The notes beneath the pieces were generated by a model that had not been told where the DNA came from, searched no databases, and was given only the letters and a program-made list of their open reading frames with translations. From IMG/VR virus record IMGVR_UViG_2681813235_000001, positions 1 through 41,344 of that record: a DNA stretch of 41,344 nt, one strand, 5' to 3'. The position numbers were made by a program, and so were the translations under genes. This DNA is from a virus (taxonomy: Duplodnaviria; Heunggongvirae; Uroviricota; Caudoviricetes). This document shows positions 5,474 to 40,153 of the stretch, piece by piece. How positions within the stretch are numbered: the stretch's first letter is position 1; every line of letters begins with the position of its first letter.

Positions 5474-5637
5474 TAGATCTTAAAGTATTTATCTTTTAGA
5501 GATGTAGATGCAAAATTTTTTGCCTTTGAAAATTTTTTGTCATCAGAAGAGCTTATGAACTCATCTTTTTTGTAGGGAACCGCTAATGCTGCATCACGTC
5601 TGCGAGGCAGCTTACTTACTTCCTCGCACTTTTTCAT
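5473..5637 (-). CDS. unlisted small ORF (54 aa, Lys/Ser-rich) downstream of kinase
   Basis: Hand-translated ATG(5637)...TAG(5473): MKKCEEVSKLPRRRDAALAVPYKKDEFISSSDDKKFSKAKNFASTSLKDKYFKI; ATG is 2 nt after kinase stop; stop abuts the terminator hairpin. Confidence 0.35.
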   Translation of the reverse strand: MKKCEEVSKLPRRRDAALAVPYKKDEFISSSDDKKFSKAKNFASTSLKDKYFKI

Positions 5638-5639
5638 GA

Positions 5640-6686
5640 TCAGTTATCCTTTAATAACCTATACAGTTTTGTAGGGGTACATCCTGAGGATATTGTTAAG
5701 TTCGTAGCACGCCTTTTCCGCCCACCATCGTATAAACGAAAACCAGTAGTAGACGAATTTTCTGCGTCAAAAACTATAGACAGTATAACGTCCCCAGACT
5801 TTTTTTGCCATTCATATGTGCCGTTAGTTGGTTTTGTCATCTGTAGACGCCAGTCAAGAACGCCATCACTTATAGCTGAGAGATCGTTTAGTACGTCTAG
5901 TACGGATTGATATCTTTCATTTGGATCTACATGAATGCATTTGTTTACTATTGTTATCAATTTTTTATGTATGTGGGAAGGATACTCTTTTAATGGATAG
6001 GAGCCATTAATTATCGACTCTCTGAGTTGTTCAATCGTTCTAAATGCAGATCTTTCTCTTTCAAAATTATCATATCCAACACACATTCTATATATGGTTA
6101 ATCCTGCCTGATATATGTCATATGTGAAATTATAATCATTTGTTGATAAAGAAAAATATTCCGGTGGCACATGAAAATGATATCCAAACTCAGGCGCAGC
6201 TCTCGATTCCTCATTGACTAACTGAGACAATCCAAAGTCAGATAGCATGGCCTCATTTCTGTTTGATATCATGATGTTATTAGGTTTTATATCAAAATGC
6301 ATAAGACCTTTTGAGTGTATATGATAAAGCCCACTTAAAAATTGAATAGAATACCGTATTATCTCCCTGCTCGTAAGATTAATCTTTTTTATTAATTGGT
6401 TTAGCGAACCATTATGATAAAATGGCATGGCTATATAGATATTGCTCTCACATTGAGCAGCATACTGAACTTGCACAATATTTGGATGTGCATGTTTATA
6501 GAGAAGCCTTGCTTCATTAAAGTAGTCGTCGTGGTTAGTGTTTTCTTTTTTTTCTATTTCTTTAATCACCAAGTCATGAGCTAGGTGTCTGTCATGAGCC
6601 AGATATACTTTTGAAAAACAACCCTGTTCTTCTAGATCACGAATCCATTCGAATGCTACATCAGCTCTTTTGTATGGAGTCAGCAT
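5640..6686 (-). CDS. Hanks-type (eukaryotic-like) protein kinase
   Basis: 348 aa; kinase motifs visible in translation: Gly-rich loop region GCFSKVY, invariant-Lys region LVIKEI, catalytic loop HFDIKPNN, SDFG (DFG motif); ATG overlaps stop of upstream ORF (ATGCTGA); visibly AT-rich. Confidence 0.85.
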   Translation of the reverse strand: MLTPYKRADVAFEWIRDLEEQGCFSKVYLAHDRHLAHDLVIKEIEKKENTNHDDYFNEARLLYKHAHPNIVQVQYAAQCESNIYIAMPFYHNGSLNQLIKKINLTSREIIRYSIQFLSGLYHIHSKGLMHFDIKPNNIMISNRNEAMLSDFGLSQLVNEESRAAPEFGYHFHVPPEYFSLSTNDYNFTYDIYQAGLTIYRMCVGYDNFERERSAFRTIEQLRESIINGSYPLKEYPSHIHKKLITIVNKCIHVDPNERYQSVLDVLNDLSAISDGVLDWRLQMTKPTNGTYEWQKKSGDVILSIVFDAENSSTTGFRLYDGGRKRRATNLTISSGCTPTKLYRLLKDN

Positions 6687-7141
6687 CCCCTTACCTCCGC
6701 AGATAGTGCAGCCAAAACAGCTTCATTTGTTTCAGTTGTAAAACCAGAATTATCGATTCCATTTATATTACGGTGTGACTTCAATATTTCTTTATACTCG
6801 ATCTCTGTTAGGTTCAATGATGACTTCATACCAGATTTTCTAATGGTGTAATATCTTCTTACATCACTGCTTGAAAATGCTTCTTGAATAACAGCTTCTA
6901 TATAAAGGCGGTCAATGCTAAGATTATCAGAGTTTGATTCAGTAACGCGTATAGCAGCTAATTCAACATTATATAAATTAAGAATGTCGAGGATGTTATT
7001 TCGCACATACTTTAATTTTTCTGGTGTGTCTAAGGTCGAAGGTATTTTAATAACATCAACACATTTGAGTGCAGACTCATCAGTGCAATATACAACAAAA
7101 GATGTAACTTTGGGCGCCGCCCTAACACCTAGTATTCTCAT
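6680..7141 (-). CDS. hypothetical protein, first gene of the cassette downstream of the repressor
   Basis: 153-aa ORF, AT-rich, no recognisable motif; translationally coupled to the kinase. Confidence 0.5.
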   Translation of the reverse strand: MRILGVRAAPKVTSFVVYCTDESALKCVDVIKIPSTLDTPEKLKYVRNNILDILNLYNVELAAIRVTESNSDNLSIDRLYIEAVIQEAFSSSDVRRYYTIRKSGMKSSLNLTEIEYKEILKSHRNINGIDNSGFTTETNEAVLAALSAEVRGC

Positions 7142-9838: not shown

Positions 9839-10536
9839 AAAACATCGCCGCACAGATGGTTAACTTTGACCGTGAGCAGATGCGTCGGATCGCCAACAAC
9901 ATGCCGGAACAGTACGACGAAAAGCCACAGGTACAGCAGGTAGCGCAGATCATCAACGGTGTGTTCAGCCAGTTACTGGCAACTTTCCCGGCGAGCCTGG
10001 CTAACCGTGACCAGAATGAACTGAACGAAATCCGCCGCCAGTGGGTGCTGGCTTTTCGGGAAAACGGGATCACCACAATGGAACAGGTTAACGCTGGAAT
10101 GCGCGTAGCCCGTCGGCAGAATCGACCATTCCTGCCATCACCCGGGCAGTTTGTCGCCTGGTGCCGGGAAGAAGCATCCGTTAACGCCGGGCTGCCAAAC
10201 GCCAGCGAGCTGGTTGATATGGTTTACGAGTATTGCCGGAAGCGTGGCCTTTATCCGGATGCAGAGTCTTATCCATGGAAATCAAACGCGCACTACTGGT
10301 TGGTTACCAACCTGTATCAGAACATGCGGGCCAATGCGCTTACTGATGCGGAATTACGGCGCAAGGCTGCCGATGAACTGACCTGTATGACCACGCGAAT
10401 TAACCGTGGTGAGACGATACCTGAACCAGTAAAACAACTTCCTGTCATGGGCGGTAGACCTCTAAATCGTGCACAGGCTCTGGCGAAGATCGCAGAAATC
10501 AAAGCGAAGTTTGGGCTGAAAGGAGACAGAGCATGA
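9835..10536 (+). CDS. P: replication protein P (DnaB helicase loader)
   Basis: 233-aa translation matches lambda P from memory almost throughout (MKNIAAQMVNFDREQMRRIANNMPEQYDEKPQVQQVAQIINGVFSQLLATFPASLANRDQNE...). Confidence 0.95.
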   Translation: MKNIAAQMVNFDREQMRRIANNMPEQYDEKPQVQQVAQIINGVFSQLLATFPASLANRDQNELNEIRRQWVLAFRENGITTMEQVNAGMRVARRQNRPFLPSPGQFVAWCREEASVNAGLPNASELVDMVYEYCRKRGLYPDAESYPWKSNAHYWLVTNLYQNMRANALTDAELRRKAADELTCMTTRINRGETIPEPVKQLPVMGGRPLNRAQALAKIAEIKAKFGLKGDRA

Positions 10537-10792
10537 GTGAGCAATACTGGTTTTTGTGTGCAAAATTGGGCTAGAAGGAAATATCAATCGACGCAGAAAT
10601 AATTAAGTTATTTTTTTAATAGAACTGAGCTTGAAGATATGATTTTGCAGGGATACTTACGCTGTGAGCAGTCGAAGACATTGCAACATGCAAGTGATTC
10701 TCAATATTCATAGATGACAAAACATAATGCGAAGATGTAACATATTAATTTCTATGATTTGAAATGTCTAAGTTGTAAAAAGGAAAACTATA

Positions 10793-11050
10793 ATGTATGT
10801 AGATATTTATAAAAGTGATATTTGTAATTCTAAGTATCTTGTTGTCCCAGCGAATACAGTGGTTACAGGAAATGCCCTCGGGGTGAGTGATCCTGACTTC
10901 TCGAAATTTTCAATTATCAAAAAAAGTGAGTTGTTAGAACCTGGGATGATAGGTATCAATGACGTAAGAGCTAAAAGCGATATCAATTCTATTGGATATC
11001 ATATTTTAAGAGTGAGAACTTCTTTTCAAGAAGACACAACTAAAAATTAA
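10793..11050 (+). CDS. hypothetical protein in AT-rich island (weakly YcgL-domain-like)
   Basis: 85-aa ORF with AAAAGGA 8 nt upstream; visibly AT-rich island 10540-11080; weak resemblance MYVDIYKS...SKYLVV to YcgL (M-x-VIYRS...YLYV). Confidence 0.35.
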   Translation: MYVDIYKSDICNSKYLVVPANTVVTGNALGVSDPDFSKFSIIKKSELLEPGMIGINDVRAKSDINSIGYHILRVRTSFQEDTTKN

Positions 11051-11086
11051 TTTTTGATTTTTTTAGAATCAACCTTTCATAATCAT

Positions 11087-11205
11087 GTCATCGGAGCCTG
11101 AACAACTCCGATGACTTCTGCGCTAAACGGGGACGTTTATGCGCACATACAATCCAAATTATCTTCTCCCTTCACAGATGTAGAAATGCACCTGCGGTTT
11201 TTTAT
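11087..11205. repeat. direct repeat copy 1 (hairpin plus ~90-bp conserved segment)
   Basis: Hairpin GTCATCGGAG-(9 nt)-CTCCGATGAC at 11087-11115, then segment near-identical to 13427-13516. Confidence 0.75.
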
Positions 11206-11270
11206 ATTCGGTGTTTGGCCTCGGCAGTATAGAGCTGGGAATCTCTGTTCGTCTGGCGGCTAAAGGCGAT

Positions 11271-11360
11271 ATGGAAATCGTGATGTCTTGGCCTAAAGTA
11301 GTTGCAACAGTTGTAGCAGCTATGGCTGTGATCATCATGGTGTCCATTTACTGGGGTTGA
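11271..11360 (+). CDS. possible small hydrophobic peptide (29 aa)
   Basis: Hand-translated: MEIVMSWPKVVATVVAAMAVIIMVSIYWG; single predicted TM helix; weak SD (AAGG, 4-nt spacing); antisense ORF 11159-11347 also open, so strand is ambiguous. Confidence 0.25.
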   Translation: MEIVMSWPKVVATVVAAMAVIIMVSIYWG

Positions 11361-11448
11361 CGATATGATTTATCTGGGGATATATTCTTACGCGTTGCCG
11401 CAAAATCGGCACACGGGATTGGCGTCCCGGAATACTACTCAACGCATG

Positions 11449-11469
11449 CCGCGTTAAGCGGTTTTTTTA
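11449..11469 (+). terminator. weak candidate intrinsic terminator
   Basis: CCGC-GTTAA-GCGG followed by TTTTTTT; stem only 4-5 bp. Confidence 0.3.
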
Positions 11470-11624
11470 TGCGCTAAGCACGGCTACGTCCAAATTATGG
11501 TGGGCTGTGTGAGGGCTTCTTCGGGAGCGCCGGGTTTGAGTAGCCGGTTACGCCAACCTTGCACAGTTCACCACCAGTCGATTGGCGTCGTTGGTGGTGA
11601 TGGTTAACCTGATGAGGTGATACT

Positions 11625-12230
11625 ATGACTACTCAATTAGCATTCCACAAAACGACGTTTACCCCGATTTGCCACAATAACAGAATTTGGCTTACTGCCA
11701 CTGAAGTTGGTTTAGCTCTGGAATATGCGGACGATAAAGCAGTTCAGCGTATTTACTCTCGTCACTCAGATGAATTTACAGATATGATGACAAGGGTGGT
11801 CAAAGTGACCACCCCTCGTGGAATGCAGGAGTCTCGAGTATTTAGCCTTCGCGGAGCCCATCTGATCGCCATGTTTGCTCGTACTCCTGTGGCCAAAGAA
11901 TTCCGCCGCTGGGTGCTGGATATTCTCGATCGAGAAATTCAACAATCCCCAATCACAAAACAATTCACTGATAACGAACTTTGCACACTTGCTTGGTTAT
12001 GGCGGGCAAGTGACACAATGTTAACCGCTTGCCAAAACGTCACTCCGCTTCTTCAGGTAGCAGAACACCGCGAAGCCGGTCGCTTCACTTCAATCGAACA
12101 AGAATATCCCCGGATACTCAATAAGGCACAGGCAATCCTTGCCAGAGAAACGGCACATGTAAAATTCCGGCCGTGGCAGGATGATAAGTGGAGTCGAGTA
12201 TTGACGCATTTACGTTCTGAACGGCTGTAA
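11625..12230 (+). CDS. Bro-N domain protein (putative antirepressor-like)
   Basis: N-terminal region (ICHNNRIWLTATEVGLALEY ... RVFSLRGAHLIAMFARTPVAKEFRRWVLDIL) fits the Bro-N pattern from memory; GAGGTG SD. Confidence 0.55.
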   Translation: MTTQLAFHKTTFTPICHNNRIWLTATEVGLALEYADDKAVQRIYSRHSDEFTDMMTRVVKVTTPRGMQESRVFSLRGAHLIAMFARTPVAKEFRRWVLDILDREIQQSPITKQFTDNELCTLAWLWRASDTMLTACQNVTPLLQVAEHREAGRFTSIEQEYPRILNKAQAILARETAHVKFRPWQDDKWSRVLTHLRSERL

Positions 12231-12529
12231 TAAAGTTGCGGGAGAGAAATGCCGCTAGTATTTTGTAATTAATTGAATTCTGACGGTTTAATGAGAAGTC
12301 AAGAACACTACTTGTACTATAATCGTTCGATGTTAGTGAGGGTTTGATGCAAAAAATGAAGTGATTGACCCTAAATTTGCGCGATCAGCGACAGATTGTA
12401 CACCGAGATCCTGTGGGCTGGAATTTGCAGAGAAATACCGAAAATGATATCCAATATTGTTTTCAGTTCCTACATCATACCTGATAAGGGTATAATCATA
12501 AAAATCAGGATAATTCAAGTTATAATTGT

Positions 12530-12946
12530 ATGAATAAAAACGACCTTGAAGCATTATCTGACACTAGGCTTAATGAGGCCAAATGCTTGCTTGATCATGG
12601 CTTTTTTCATGGTGCATATTATCTTTGTGGGTATGCAGTTGAATGTGCATTGAAGGCCTGTATTGCCAAGTCATTTTTACAACATGAGTTTCCAAACAAA
12701 AAAGTCGTAAATGATTCATATACTCATGATTTGTCGCAACTTCTCAAAATTGCCAACTTACATCAAATTTTGATTGCTGACGCAAAAAATGATGTTTCGT
12801 TGGAGATTAACTGGTCGGTCGTTAAAGACTGGAGCGAGCAATTTAGATACGACAATAACATAAGTAAAGCTATGGCCGAACAATTGTTTGATGCTGTAGG
12901 TGACCAAAATTCTGGAGTTTTGAAATGGGTAAAAGCACACTGGTAA
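12530..12946 (+). CDS. HEPN-domain protein
   Basis: 138 aa; central block GAYYLCGYAVECALKACIAKS ... THDLSQLLKIA matches classic HEPN helices; no clear R-x(4-6)-H motif seen; AT-rich. Confidence 0.55.
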   Translation: MNKNDLEALSDTRLNEAKCLLDHGFFHGAYYLCGYAVECALKACIAKSFLQHEFPNKKVVNDSYTHDLSQLLKIANLHQILIADAKNDVSLEINWSVVKDWSEQFRYDNNISKAMAEQLFDAVGDQNSGVLKWVKAHW

Positions 12947-13326
12947 TCGGCAGAGAGTTGACAAAAGATATGGAATTCTCAGGTCAATTTTTGTTAAAAA
13001 AACTCAAGTTACAGAATTTAACTATTGATGCTGCAATGTGGTTTTATTACCCAGATCTATCTTGGAGATATATTTTAGTTATCAGTGACTTCTCAGAACG
13101 TGGACCGGCAGAAATATATAGAAAAATCAGTGAGATAAATAGAAATAGCATATCAAAAAAGTATAAGCCGATACCATTAGAAGCAATTGAGGCTAAGGGG
13201 GATTCAGCTTTTATTTATAAAATGTTAAAAGGATTTGCTAGAGTCAACGATGGTAAAGTTCGCGTTTCTAATTCTATGGTAAATGGTTTAGAAATCGTTG
13301 ACTGTCTGATCTATGAGTTAAAATAA
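12925..13326 (+). CDS. hypothetical protein, overlapping partner of the HEPN gene
   Basis: 133-aa ORF; start overlaps HEPN 3' end by 22 nt with GGAG upstream; no nucleotidyltransferase GS...DxD motif found; AT-rich. Confidence 0.45.
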   Translation: MGKSTLVIGRELTKDMEFSGQFLLKKLKLQNLTIDAAMWFYYPDLSWRYILVISDFSERGPAEIYRKISEINRNSISKKYKPIPLEAIEAKGDSAFIYKMLKGFARVNDGKVRVSNSMVNGLEIVDCLIYELK

Positions 13327-13397
13327 GAAATCTCTTGCTGGGTATCATTATTGTTTAAATGACTTTTGATTTTCAATAATCAACTTGTCATAATTAA

Positions 13398-13516
13398 GTC
13401 ACCGGAGTTTGAACTCCTCCGGTGACTTCTGCGCTAAACGGGGACGTTTATGCGCACATACAATCCAAACTCTCTTCTCCCTTCACAGATGCAGAAATGC
13501 ACCTGCAATTCTTTGC
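13398..13516. repeat. direct repeat copy 2 (hairpin plus ~90-bp conserved segment)
   Basis: Hairpin GTCACCGGAG-(9 nt)-CTCCGGTGAC at 13398-13426, then segment near-identical to 11116-11205; immediately upstream of ninB. Confidence 0.75.
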
Positions 13517-13547
13517 ATCTAGCGTTTGACCTCTGCGGAGGTGAAGC

Positions 13548-14815: not shown

Positions 14816-14952
14816 TGTTTGAGTTTTATATGGCAGAACTTCTTCGCCACCGCTGGGGGCATCTGCGCTTATATCGTTTCCCCGGTTCTGTTTTGACCGA
14901 TTACCGAATACTGAAGAATTACGCCAAAACCCTGAAAGGAGCTGCCGCATGA
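14812..14952 (+). CDS. ylcG: YlcG-like small protein (46 aa, not in ORF track)
   Basis: Hand-translated: [46 protein letters not shown]; overlaps rusA stop and Q-like start. Confidence 0.55.
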
Positions 14953-15638
14953 ATACCCAATATTTACAGTATGTCCGCGAGCAACTCATTGTGGCTACCG
15001 CTGATTTGAGCGGAGCAACGAAAGGCCAGCTTGAAGCCTGGCTGGAGCATGCACAATTTGATACTGGTACATACAAACGAAAGAAGCGACGCATTCTGGA
15101 TGAGGTAACTGGCAAGATTATTATGCTGGATAATCCGCCGATTTCCGGTAAACAGTCGTACGCAAAAGGTTCATCTGTCGCCCTGATCAGTCCGGTCGAG
15201 TTTTCAACCTCTTCATGGCGCCGCGCTGTTCTGTCTCTCGATGAGCATCAGAAAGCATGGTTGCTGTGGAGTTACAGTGAAAATATTCGCTGGGAGCATC
15301 AGGTTGCCATAACGCAGTGGGCATGGAGCGAGTTTAAGACTCTGTTGGGTACCAGAAAAATTGCAGGTAAGACACTGGAACGCCTGAAGAAGTTGATCTG
15401 GCTGGCGGCACAGGATGTGAAGAGCGAACTGGCAGGGCGTGAGGCTTATGAATACCAGGAACTGGCGTCACTGGTGGGAGTGACATCAAAAAACTGGTCT
15501 GAGACATTCACTGAACGCTGGGTTGCAATGAAGCACATTTTTCTACAGCTTGATAGCGAAGCTTTATTGCTTCTAACGAGAACACGTTCAAAACAAAAGG
15601 CGACATTTTCACAGCAAAATATTGCAAAACTGGATTAA
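14949..15638 (+). CDS. putative late-gene antiterminator (Q-like)
   Basis: 229-aa ORF in the canonical Q position between nin genes and the lysis cassette; not lambda Q by sequence; assignment is positional. Confidence 0.5.
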   Translation: MNTQYLQYVREQLIVATADLSGATKGQLEAWLEHAQFDTGTYKRKKRRILDEVTGKIIMLDNPPISGKQSYAKGSSVALISPVEFSTSSWRRAVLSLDEHQKAWLLWSYSENIRWEHQVAITQWAWSEFKTLLGTRKIAGKTLERLKKLIWLAAQDVKSELAGREAYEYQELASLVGVTSKNWSETFTERWVAMKHIFLQLDSEALLLLTRTRSKQKATFSQQNIAKLD

Positions 15639-30454: not shown

Positions 30455-30545
30455 CCAGGATTCCCCTCACAGGTATTGCTGGTTGTAAGTCATAAATAGA
30501 GTGATAGAATTAATGCACATTTAGAAAAATGTTAATAGGCGAAAA

Positions 30546-31076
30546 ATGAAAGGCTATATCACAGCAAGTGTAATTCTTGGAGCAGCGGCTATTTTTTCAT
30601 CTCTCATAATCTCTGGCAACATCTCCTTTAAAGATGAACATATTATTCAGTTATCTGGAGGAGCCATAAAACTTGGTGATGTTTATAAAGAAAATAAATT
30701 GATAAGTGCAAAGATTATTTTTCCAGATAATCAGGGTGAACAGATTCTTGTTGTCGACGGCAATCCTGAAAACTTTAAGGAGGATTTTCAGGAGAAATTA
30801 AATAAAGTAATAAAAACTTTAAATGCGTCAAAGAAAAAAGATGAAGAGAAAGTTAGCCTGGATAATTTAAGTGTTATTGAAGAGTCTAAACTAGAGCTCG
30901 TTTCTGCGGTGCGTTACTCTGCTCAGTATGTTCCTATGTTTACTCTGACGCTGGACAAAAAAGAAATTACCATGCCTAAAAATACGGTAATATTTCCATT
31001 TGCCAGCGATGAAACAGCTAAGTATTTAAATGAACAACAGCAAAAGTATAAAGATTCGTTGTTTCTGACTCGCTAA
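30546..31076 (+). CDS. hypothetical exported/membrane-anchored protein (AT-rich cargo within tail cluster)
   Basis: 176 aa; N-terminal hydrophobic signal/anchor (ASVILGAAAIFSSLIISG); visibly AT-rich; own terminator follows. Confidence 0.45.
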   Translation: MKGYITASVILGAAAIFSSLIISGNISFKDEHIIQLSGGAIKLGDVYKENKLISAKIIFPDNQGEQILVVDGNPENFKEDFQEKLNKVIKTLNASKKKDEEKVSLDNLSVIEESKLELVSAVRYSAQYVPMFTLTLDKKEITMPKNTVIFPFASDETAKYLNEQQQKYKDSLFLTR

Positions 31077-38256: not shown

Positions 38257-38730
38257 TTGTACATAAAGACAATCGACTACTATCGTATGCCTGCATTGGT
38301 ATTGGGTAGCTGCGCTTATAAGTTTATGCACCAGCAGGGCACGTTCACACCTATTGTCAAGGTTGGCGCTACAACACTAACACCTACAGGCACACCACAA
38401 GGTTTTTATGAGCGTATAGGGGATACTTTTAAATGCTGGATAAATTTTTATGAGAATGGTGTTGATTTAAGAATTCTTTCTGGGCAATTCAAAATTGAGG
38501 GGTTGCCATTTGCTATAACGTCGTTAGATAGCACCACAAGCTTCCCTGTTGTTCACGCTGCATATATTAAAACAACGGCTATCGGCATGTCGGCCACAAT
38601 GTCAGGGACCACCATTAACCTCAGAAAGAATTATAGTTCTTCCTTGTTTAATGGCAGTGACTTTATCTCAAGCTTGGAGCATTTCATTAAGTTTAAAATA
38701 GAGTCCACGGTTGCAAGAACAGCAGTATAA
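38257..38730 (+). CDS. hypothetical protein (Thr/Ser-rich)
   Basis: 157-aa ORF followed by a terminator shared with the convergent acyltransferase gene. Confidence 0.35.
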   Translation: MYIKTIDYYRMPALVLGSCAYKFMHQQGTFTPIVKVGATTLTPTGTPQGFYERIGDTFKCWINFYENGVDLRILSGQFKIEGLPFAITSLDSTTSFPVVHAAYIKTTAIGMSATMSGTTINLRKNYSSSLFNGSDFISSLEHFIKFKIESTVARTAV

Positions 38731-38731
38731 T

Positions 38732-38760
38732 AAAAGCGCCCGGTTGGGCGCTTTTATTTC
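38732..38760. terminator. bidirectional intrinsic terminator between convergent genes
   Basis: AAAGCGCCC-GGTT-GGGCGCTTT flanked by A/T tracts on both sides. Confidence 0.5.
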
Positions 38761-39695
38761 TATAGCAAATACTTTACTTTGCTATTTAGCTTAACTAATA
38801 CGTAAGAAACAGGAACTAGAACCCCAATAACAAAAAGATATCGTAGTGCACTTAATTTGTCATCGTATACATAATCCTGCCCAATGAATATTATTGCGGG
38901 ATGAACTAAATAAACAGCCGTAGCAAAGGAAGATAGGTGTTTATACTTTCCAAGAATATCAATCTTCATTATGTAAGTGAACAATAACGGCGAAATAAGC
39001 AATAATGAAAACATCATATCTAATTGCTTATCTGCACCGAATAACTTCAGATTAAGATAAGATTCTGCAATCAACAATGCAAAGGCTGATGCGACTATCG
39101 GCAAGCCATAATTTTTTACATTACTTATGCCAGCTCTGCGGATAAGTAAACCAATGATCATAAATGGAAGACAGTCAAATAAGAAGTTTCTATGGGATGG
39201 GGTAAATGCAAGAACCTTTGATATAATTCCGCTGAAAACATTTAGGTTTGCAGCATATTGAAGTAAGGTGCCAGATATATATAAAATCATTGACAAAATT
39301 ATCAAGGTGCTTGCTGGTTTGCCCATCAATAAATAAAGTAGGCATCCAGCCAAGATTACTCCAGTTATATACCATAAAGCATAATAACCATTAAATATAT
39401 TTATTAGAGTAGTAACAACTCCTGCTTTACCAAGCCAAAATGGGAGGTATATAATAGACCATACGACATATAAAATAAGCATCCTGGAAATCCACTTTAT
39501 GAAGTCTTTCCCTGTTTCAATTCTAGTAAAAAAATAACCAGTTATTATAAGAAATAGAGGTACTGATAATCTAAAAATTCCGTTAACAAGGAGGTGACTT
39601 ACTGTTGTATTAAGCTCTCTAAGAATATCAAGGTGTATAAATACAACAAAAAATGCCGCAGTAACTTTTAATATATCTATTGATAGATGTCTCAT
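38760..39695 (-). CDS. acyltransferase-3 family integral membrane protein (putative O-antigen acetyltransferase, lysogenic conversion)
   Basis: Polytopic membrane protein with many hydrophobic helices, AT-rich, next to the integrase, the usual site for oac-type conversion genes; first ATG at 39695 (ORF from GTG at 39710). Confidence 0.65.
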   Translation of the reverse strand: MRHLSIDILKVTAAFFVVFIHLDILRELNTTVSHLLVNGIFRLSVPLFLIITGYFFTRIETGKDFIKWISRMLILYVVWSIIYLPFWLGKAGVVTTLINIFNGYYALWYITGVILAGCLLYLLMGKPASTLIILSMILYISGTLLQYAANLNVFSGIISKVLAFTPSHRNFLFDCLPFMIIGLLIRRAGISNVKNYGLPIVASAFALLIAESYLNLKLFGADKQLDMMFSLLLISPLLFTYIMKIDILGKYKHLSSFATAVYLVHPAIIFIGQDYVYDDKLSALRYLFVIGVLVPVSYVLVKLNSKVKYLL

Positions 39696-39708
39696 TGATA
39701 GATGTCTC
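39679..39708. repeat. perfect 15-bp tandem duplication spanning the acyltransferase start
   Basis: ATTGATAGATGTCTC at 39679-39693 repeated at 39694-39708; on the coding strand gives GTG-AGACATCTATCA / ATG-AGACATCTATCA (MRHLS-MRHLS). Confidence 0.8.
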
Positions 39709-39988
39709 ACATGCGTCTAAGAAGGAAATTGGCAGTATTTTATGAATTATGACTTTAAAATGATTAACAATCAACATATTACATCATTTGCACTAGTAGC
39801 CTTGATCATAGAATCAGCATCTGTTTGGCCTGTCGTTCACGGCATAGACATTCACAAGGTTATTTAACCAAGCGCAACTATATCTTGCCAGACAAATCAT
39901 TCTGACTGCGGTTTTGTGTTTTTTAACTTGATCGACTCCCGGCTTTAGCAATGCTGTGTATTTATTCAGTATAAATGGAGGGCGGGTT

Positions 39989-40153
39989 ATGGCACGCAGA
40001 TACGAGATACCCTGCGCTTTTACGGCAGCAATCAAATCAGAACCAAGTGGTCGCAAGATGGTGTCAACGCAGGACTTTGTAACACAGCGGGCAAAGGTCA
40101 ACAGGCACTGGTCACAAGTGAATATTTGTAGTAATTGTGACGATCATAATTAA
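39989..40153 (+). CDS. hypothetical small protein next to integrase (very uncertain)
   Basis: ATG 39989 preceded by GGAGGG at 7 nt; 54 aa; no motif recognised. Confidence 0.2.
   Translation: MARRYEIPCAFTAAIKSEPSGRKMVSTQDFVTQRAKVNRHWSQVNICSNCDDHN

Follow-up and report, generated by a model that had tools for sequence, protein, structure and literature searches.

Bacterial immunity and toxin–antitoxin (TA) systems use HEPN ribonucleases (RNases) as one of their most frequent kinds of effector, and the understood ways of restraining them are few: AMPylation by a minimal nucleotidyltransferase (MNT), occlusion of the RnlB type, RNA antitoxins and the allosteric tetramers of HepS. Here we present a computational analysis of a two-gene locus, referred to as A-B, carried by the IMG/VR virus record IMGVR_UViG_2681813235_000001 (Caudoviricetes), the 41,344 nucleotides of which make up the whole stretch of DNA analysed (hereafter the window). 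Gene A (12530..12946, + strand, ATG start) encodes a HEPN-domain protein of 138 amino acids (aa), recorded as WP_001038620.1 in Escherichia coli O26 and as PHROG 5737, and gene B (12925..13326, + strand, ATG start) encodes a 133-aa partner of an unannotated family (WP_000520500.1; PHROG 5760). An earlier note, made from the sequence alone, had proposed a candidate TA or abortive-infection (Abi) pair at this position. Our results bear out the HEPN identity of A and a pairing with B that is both obligate and non-canonical, while the toxicity and anti-phage role implied by the same proposal are predicted from these features.

Among the described systems, the classical MNT-associated HEPN proteins (PF05168/UPF0332; TT1696, 1ufb; AF0298, 2hsb; ST0689, 1wol) were compared as the closest HEPN-MNT kin of A. 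Their partner is a minimal nucleotidyltransferase encoded 5′ of the HEPN gene (PMC3710099), whereas B is encoded 3′ of it with a conserved overlap of 22 nt, lacks the GS and DxD motifs and matches neither NTP_transf_2 nor Polbeta in Pfam. The two hallmarks of type VII HepT/MntA systems, namely an adjacent MNT with G[GS] and DxD/E motifs and its position 5′ of the HEPN gene, are both absent from A-B. A likeness to RnlAB and LsoAB can be drawn by analogy, since these associate a HEPN RNase with a small, non-enzymatic and non-DNA-binding antitoxin that blocks the active site of the HEPN dimer (PMC8266594), and since a phage-defence role or a location on mobile elements would be common to them and A-B. 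Small HEPN Abi proteins are also carried as temperate-phage cargo, as A is, in the case of HepS (Gifsy-1) and Tha (Staphylococcus aureus prophages). Finally, AbiV, a HEPN Abi protein of Lactococcus, belongs to a type III TA system with an RNA antitoxin, whereas the partner in A-B is a conserved protein.

Both A and B are real genes, as A passes the Pfam HEPN cut-off and B is conserved across phyla and has a confident predicted fold. Read from the sequence, the coordinates, the sizes of 138 and 133 aa and the 22-nt overlap (12925-12946, + strand) are exactly those of the earlier note, and the two motifs that it had quoted, GAYYLCGYAVECALKA and THDLSQLL, are found in the gene A protein, whose HEPN assignment holds with a Pfam match (PF05168 type) of 27.8 bits for a cut-off of 22 (E 3e-6, residues 12-118). 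The pair is AT-rich, as had been noticed, with a GC content of 0.356 and 0.352 in the scan intervals spanning 12501-13500 compared with ~0.43-0.52 on either side. It also occupies the nin region of a lambdoid prophage, with the replication genes and an antirepressor-like gene on one side and the ninB/ybcN-ninE-rusA-Q block on the other. In RefSeq (O26:H11 strain 11368), A is named "HEPN domain-containing protein" and B "hypothetical protein", and PHROGs file both under "unknown function". That B might be a chance open reading frame (ORF) over the 3′ end of A is ruled out by its conservation as a protein across phyla together with its confident fold.

The association between A and B was found wherever either gene was used as seed. 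Among at least 591 confirmed matches to A in one-genome-per-species contigs, 80 loci were analysed and, with 41 IMG/VR viral contigs and 15 further contigs, formed a set of 136 A-seeded loci, all of which (136/136) display an ORF matching the B profile directly downstream on the same strand, including the locus of the most distant A (27% identity). Reciprocally, A lies directly upstream in 80/80 metagenome loci obtained with a narrower B alignment as seed, 19 of these loci being cut by contig ends. Over both seed directions, the partner is thus 3′ of the HEPN gene in 216/216 loci. The 80 genome loci belong to Bacteroidota, Chloroflexota, Acidobacteriota, Planctomycetota, Desulfobacterota, Nitrospirota, Verrucomicrobiota, Spirochaetota, Latescibacterota, Poribacteria, Actinomycetota and Gamma- and Betaproteobacteria, extending A-B to at least 12 phyla in addition to viral contigs and prophages. 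Furthermore, the pairwise identities of A and of B across pairs are correlated (r=0.70, for a maximum of 0.085 in 500 Mantel permutations), and the two proteins therefore diverge together. A-B is an obligate, ancient two-gene unit.

A third component of the module was considered and ruled out, as an all-against-all BLAST of the ORFs flanking the 80 genome loci revealed no family present in more than 5 of them, the families reaching up to 5/80 loci reflecting related genomes. Two irregularities were encountered beside these regular loci. In three of the 80 B-seeded metagenome loci (L185, L205 and L206), an intact B follows an A gene broken into two frames near residue 95, which corresponds either to sequencing frameshifts or to an inactivated HEPN gene with a retained partner; if real, such loci display the decay pattern expected of a toxic upstream gene. 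At another locus, from a metagenome-assembled genome of Desulfobacterales, a second partial B-like ORF (L018:4888-5079, E 3.5e-17) follows the complete B and may have arisen by duplication of the partner or be what is left of a decayed copy.

The architecture of the overlap is itself conserved. B starts 22 nt before the end of the A stop codon in 72 of the 86 distinct loci, across phyla, which makes the overlap as such ancient, and these 72 overlapping B genes use ATG (63), GTG (8) or TTG (1) as start codon. Within the coupling region of the window (12914..12946, + strand, read from sequence), the ATG of B (12925-12927) is made of the last base of the K132 codon of A and the TG of the codon of the invariant W133 (xxA-TGG), a Shine-Dalgarno-like GGAG (12914-12917) overlaps the codon of the likewise invariant G129 (12914-12916), and the stop codon of A follows at 12944-12946; G129 and W133 are both 100% conserved. 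Such an arrangement of signals points to a probable translational coupling and to a fixed A:B stoichiometry. Compact, co-inherited, mobile and patchily distributed, A-B has the features generically expected of a type II TA operon of small proteins.

Protein A is a single 138-aa domain displaying the all-alpha four-helix HEPN fold. Across 155 unique family members, R13, E38, K42, H66, R106 and Y107 are kept at 99-100% (E38 100%, K42 99%, H66 100%, R106 99%), as are structural Gly, Tyr and Trp residues. E38-x3-K42 is located in helix 2, H66 in helix 3 and R106 in helix 4, with the invariant Y107 adjacent to R106. The lack of a clear Rx4-6H motif, pointed out in the earlier note, extends to the family: a His is present at positions +4 to +6 from R106 in just 11 of the 155 unique members, and the window protein (RYDNNISK) has none. 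A does possess the second motif, Ex3[KR], as well as a conserved His on the N-terminal side of the Arg, and precisely this combination, with Ex3[KR], the Arg retained and a second, strongly conserved His preceding it, has been described as a HEPN variant for AF0298 and AbiV (PMC3710099). The conserved residues of A, as aligned, correspond to this "alternative histidine" layout, and catalysis by A is plausible because its residue pattern matches that of the AF0298/AbiV variant. A is thus a member of the HEPN superfamily by its hidden Markov model match, its fold and this described variant, and it departs from it by the canonical motif.

The partner belongs to a family as widespread as it is featureless to current databases. 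An exhaustive profile search (E<=1e-3) recovered 850 B representatives at 50% clustering, nearly all of them 120-145 aa long, and in 155 unique pairs the residues G20, W39, W47, G60, Y65, R113, D126 and Y130 are conserved at 94-99% and N120 at ~80%. The AlphaFold2 model of B (pLDDT 90.8) presents an alpha/beta fold with elements in the order alpha-beta-beta-alpha-alpha-beta-alpha-beta-beta. As the earlier note had anticipated, B carries no recognisable motif: searches of Pfam, NCBIfam and PADLOC gave no match, and neither did a search of its family profile against the sequences of PDB chains, RnlB included if deposited. Foldseek of the model against the PDB returned nothing significant (best E 0.038, TM-score <=0.39). 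The absence of the G[GS]...DxD nucleotidyltransferase (NTase) motif, also claimed, is confirmed in the sequence of B and in the 155 unique pairs, which show no conserved acidic pair. The model allows no confident assignment of the fold, so that an MNT origin of B is a lead and not a finding. The source names consulted for B homologues are all "hypothetical protein", save one "ribosomal protein S28E/S33" (JGI) that is an evident mis-annotation. In addition, a 178-aa "eukprot" gene model was found to be 100% identical to B over 77% of the length of B, which is probably due to bacterial contamination or to a chimeric model in the eukaryotic data set.

In Enterobacteria and Acinetobacter, the pair is prophage cargo inserted at differing positions. 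Among 5426 complete E. coli genomes, 190 share with the window the 1.15-kb segment of the pair, at 99.7% identity, and many of these 190 are Shiga-toxigenic E. coli (STEC) of serogroups O26 or O103. In the E. coli match inspected (O26:H11 strain 11368), the pair resides in a prophage of lambdoid type inserted beside a tRNA-Arg gene, following replication genes and an antirepressor-like gene and preceding ybcN(ninB)-ninE-ybcO-rusA-ylcG-Q. It occupies the prophage nin region upstream of NinG/Q in Klebsiella, where phage Kp4864-1 encodes both genes at ~59% identity, and it follows the lysis genes in Acinetobacter prophages, adjoining UmuDC, AbiH and an integrase. Elsewhere, the pair is inserted between purM and purH in Chloroflexota, lies inside a PIN/HicB/Fic toxin–antitoxin island in Woeseiaceae, or stands between unrelated housekeeping genes in other loci.

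We propose, with a confidence that we set at an even chance, that A-B is a self-contained and horizontally mobile TA-like module, associating a HEPN RNase-type effector with a non-enzymatic neutraliser and travelling as lambdoid prophage cargo. According to this proposal, A would be an endoribonuclease-type effector in which an alternative active site (E38-x3-K42/H66/R106) replaces Rx4-6H, and B a non-enzymatic partner, coupled to A in translation by the conserved overlap, that would bind the A dimer and keep it silent, in the manner of RnlB with RnlA. The RNase would then be freed once B is lost, degraded or displaced, for example through the shut-off of host expression by an infecting phage or through a trigger that the phage brings in, and would cause translation arrest and growth arrest, with abortive infection or stabilisation of the prophage or replicon as possible outcomes. 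A more far-reaching version, which is possible but in our opinion doubtful, would make B the founder of a family of HEPN regulators, with a fold of its own, that had so far gone unrecognised, and A-B a new immunity or addiction class, widespread over at least 12 phyla. The non-enzymatic B would there act as a sensor-inhibitor releasing the RNase on a phage cue, or as a KH-like specificity subunit directing it to a defined RNA.

Several observations weigh against a toxin–antitoxin or defence module. The toxicity and defence roles of A-B are predicted ones. The canonical catalytic His is missing from A, which leaves its RNase activity uncertain, and for HEPN proteins of this kind Anantharaman et al. 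(PMC3710099) envisage binding of RNA without catalysis as well. A is also unusually conserved for a toxin, with a mean pairwise identity of ~49% across phyla versus 35% for B. As for the partner, neither B nor any of 27 relatives yielded a match to a helix-turn-helix (HTH), ribbon-helix-helix (RHH) or AbrB family, and B therefore lacks a recognisable DNA-binding domain of the kind that most type II antitoxins carry, although such a domain is not universal among type II systems and its absence is weak evidence. PADLOC gives a weak match of A to the candidate model PDC-M28A and nothing for B. Lastly, in non-phage genomes the nearest neighbours of the pair (145 proteins from 80 genomes) are mostly housekeeping, with only 3/145 corresponding to a known defence protein (Septu PtuA), hence no defence-island signal; for the same reason, the pair behaves as a small selfish or mobile cassette rather than as a defence-island resident.

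These reservations leave room for other explanations, the nearest of which to known biology is a highly diverged type VII HEPN-MNT system, where B would derive from a minimal nucleotidyltransferase and neutralise A either by covalently modifying the invariant Y107 through a non-canonical site or, as a pseudo-enzyme, by binding alone. Canonical HEPN-MNT is itself ruled out, given a partner devoid of NTase motifs, the reversed gene order and the lack of any NTase nearby. We consider even the diverged form unlikely, since neither a G[GS] or DxD/DxE motif nor any conserved acidic pair is present in B, its profile retrieves no NTase from PDB sequences or Pfam, and its model has no significant PDB match by Foldseek (best E 0.038), the MNT chains reaching a TM-score of ~0.3. 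In pol-beta NTases, a helix carrying the GS loop lies between the first two strands, and the modelled order of B (alpha-beta-beta-alpha-alpha-beta) has no such helix. MNT-HEPN dyads moreover have, almost without exception, the MNT gene in 5′ position (PMC3710099), an order opposite to that of A-B. No more probable, and also improbable overall, is a non-toxic two-subunit factor for RNA binding or processing, with a physiological RNA task shared between B, as a KH-like or BolA/RbfA/RimP-like adaptor, and A, as a regulated or non-catalytic HEPN. The structural similarities of B on which such an adaptor would depend all fall below significance, and the invariant E/K/H/R set of A points to catalysis over mere binding. 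The distribution is also at odds with a physiological task, as the pair has no conserved neighbourhood, is patchily spread (190/5426 E. coli genomes, in prophages wherever the context was inspected) and occurs in TA islands and beside AbiH.

The direction of neutralisation could also be the reverse, B being a growth-inhibiting effector and the upstream HEPN protein A its antidote or regulator. In most type II dyads the antitoxin is indeed the 5′ gene (PMC3710099), the position held here by A, and the conserved R113-x6-N120-x5-D126 hairpin of B could form a functional site. We nevertheless judge such an inversion quite improbable, because B displays no recognisable enzymatic or membrane motif whereas the invariant catalytic-type residues sit in A, and because HEPN is the toxic moiety in all the characterised TA and Abi systems cited here. 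Furthermore, a toxin-first order has a precedent in rnlAB, whose toxin gene is upstream of its antitoxin gene. We give least credit, regarding it as very improbable, to a function benefiting the phage or countering defence, such as breaking down signalling nucleotides, or the RNAs of the host or of a competitor, in the lytic cycle. The location of the pair in the early-right operon of lambdoid phages, where lytic expression is possible, and its presence on 41 IMG/VR viral contigs would fit this idea, but most family members occupy non-phage chromosomal contexts in phyla far from enterobacteria, and a position that varies within phages, from the nin region to after the lysis genes, is moron-like and not that of an integrated phage function.

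In the window, a 167-nt direct repeat (11059-11225 and 13370-13536; 84% identity in the repeat search, 86% column identity in a wider alignment) brackets a 2.3-kb block (11226-13369) composed of a C4/IsrK antisense-RNA module, a Bro-N/P22AR_C antirepressor-like gene and then A-B. The repeat corresponds to the "nin leader" of phage 82, with a putative promoter (-35/-10), a hairpin, a ribosome-binding site and orf33, which suggests that the block entered, or can leave, by recombination between the duplicated leaders. Its RNA components are isrK (RF01394, 11396-11468, 58.9 bits) and the C4 antisense RNA (RF01695, 11493-11578, 72.7 bits), both above the Rfam gathering score, together with a sub-threshold Rfam match to the c4 a1/b1 target element (11382-11433). 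The antirepressor-like ORF (11625-12230) is directly downstream of the C4/isrK RNAs, forming with them, 5′ of the HEPN pair, a module that appears to be P1 immI-like or Gifsy-1 IsrK-AnrP-like. An RNA antitoxin of the AbiV type was sought and rejected, as neither tandem repeats nor Rfam RNAs occur within or adjoining A-B, the C4 and isrK RNAs belonging to this upstream antirepressor module.

An AT-rich spacer of 299 nt (12231..12529, + strand) separates the antirepressor-like gene from A and contains a perfect -10 element (TATAAT, 12491-12496) at 17-nt spacing from a weak -35 (TTCCTA), a possible promoter of A-B itself on the basis of these motifs. With the thresholds used, a consensus scan called no promoter in the spacer, nor did it call a terminator separating A from the upstream gene, and transcription by read-through from the antirepressor operon is for this reason equally possible. 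Downstream, 70 nt past the stop codon of B, a hairpin with a 12-bp stem (13396..13428, + strand; dG -20 kcal/mol, z -4.63, 0/200 shuffles folding equally well) belongs to the repeated "nin leader", and its equivalent in phage 82 carries the annotation "possible regulator-binding site". The two copies of this hairpin differ by compensatory stem changes, and the one following B may close the cassette, either as a terminator or as a site for a regulator to bind.

Beyond this block, further AT-rich islands (GC 0.33-0.38, for a prophage background of ~0.5-0.6) were observed at 5501-7000, 10501-11000, 30501-31000 and 38501-40000 and may be additional morons; one of them contains an 85-aa ORF (10793-11050) situated just before the first leader copy. 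In addition, a 229-aa ORF (14949-15638) follows ylcG at the place where the O26 reference has a shorter quuD antiterminator (128 aa, 384-nt coordinates), and in the Klebsiella prophages that carry the pair a Phage_antiter_Q gene, likewise of 229 aa, holds the equivalent place. The window may thus differ from the O26 reference in its late-regulation module.

The understanding of such a pair would have several implications. The compactness of the system (138 + 133 aa) makes it directly testable in E. coli, with a restraining partner that has no detectable relatives, and A-B could serve to test the still-unproven "alternative histidine" HEPN active site. Given the strict co-inheritance of the pair over a dozen phyla or more, a mechanism established in E. 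coli should apply widely. The presence of the pair in prophages of Shiga-toxigenic E. coli (O26, O103), Klebsiella and Acinetobacter could also affect superinfection immunity or prophage stability. A further HEPN partner is as such no great surprise; it is the breadth, the strictness of linkage, the unassignable fold and the small size that make A-B a good target.

With regard to catalogued systems, a known defence system was rejected as an identity for A-B, since PADLOC yields the PDC-M28A match alone, NCBIfam none and PHROGs only "unknown function". The 138-position profile of the defence candidate PDC-M28A is matched by 21/21 tested A-family members (best E 7.5e-12), the window A reaching a weak 29.7 bits, compared with a within-family E of ~1e-60 against its own A profile. 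Because these scores are far below those within the family, PDC-M28A is, from sequence comparison, best seen as a related sister HEPN family of A and not as the same family. In the part of the literature covered, on HEPN proteins of lambdoid phages, prophages and nin regions, the A-B pair is undescribed and PDC-M28 goes unmentioned, and the A and B accessions are absent from the parts covered of the DefensePredictor supplements.

Compared with the described systems, A-B finds its closest mechanistic precedent, by analogy, in RnlA-RnlB, and its closest counterparts in biological setting in HepS and Tha. RnlA is a 357-aa protein combining two TBP-like domains (NTD and NRD) with a HEPN domain bearing the canonical R318-x4-H323 (PMC8266594), whereas A is a bare 138-aa HEPN without that His and without the three-domain organisation of RnlAB. 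HepS, similarly placed in its lambdoid prophage, stands alone, with a canonical RX4-6H (R100-H105) and no co-occurring partner, whereas A-B has an obligate partner and lacks the canonical His; HepS and Tha both being solo proteins with the canonical motif, A-B is not a member of their group. The HEPN superfamily and its "alternative histidine" variant, to which A belongs, are already known, and what A-B adds to them is an obligate partner family for a HEPN toxin-type module, together with a conserved overlapping-gene architecture.
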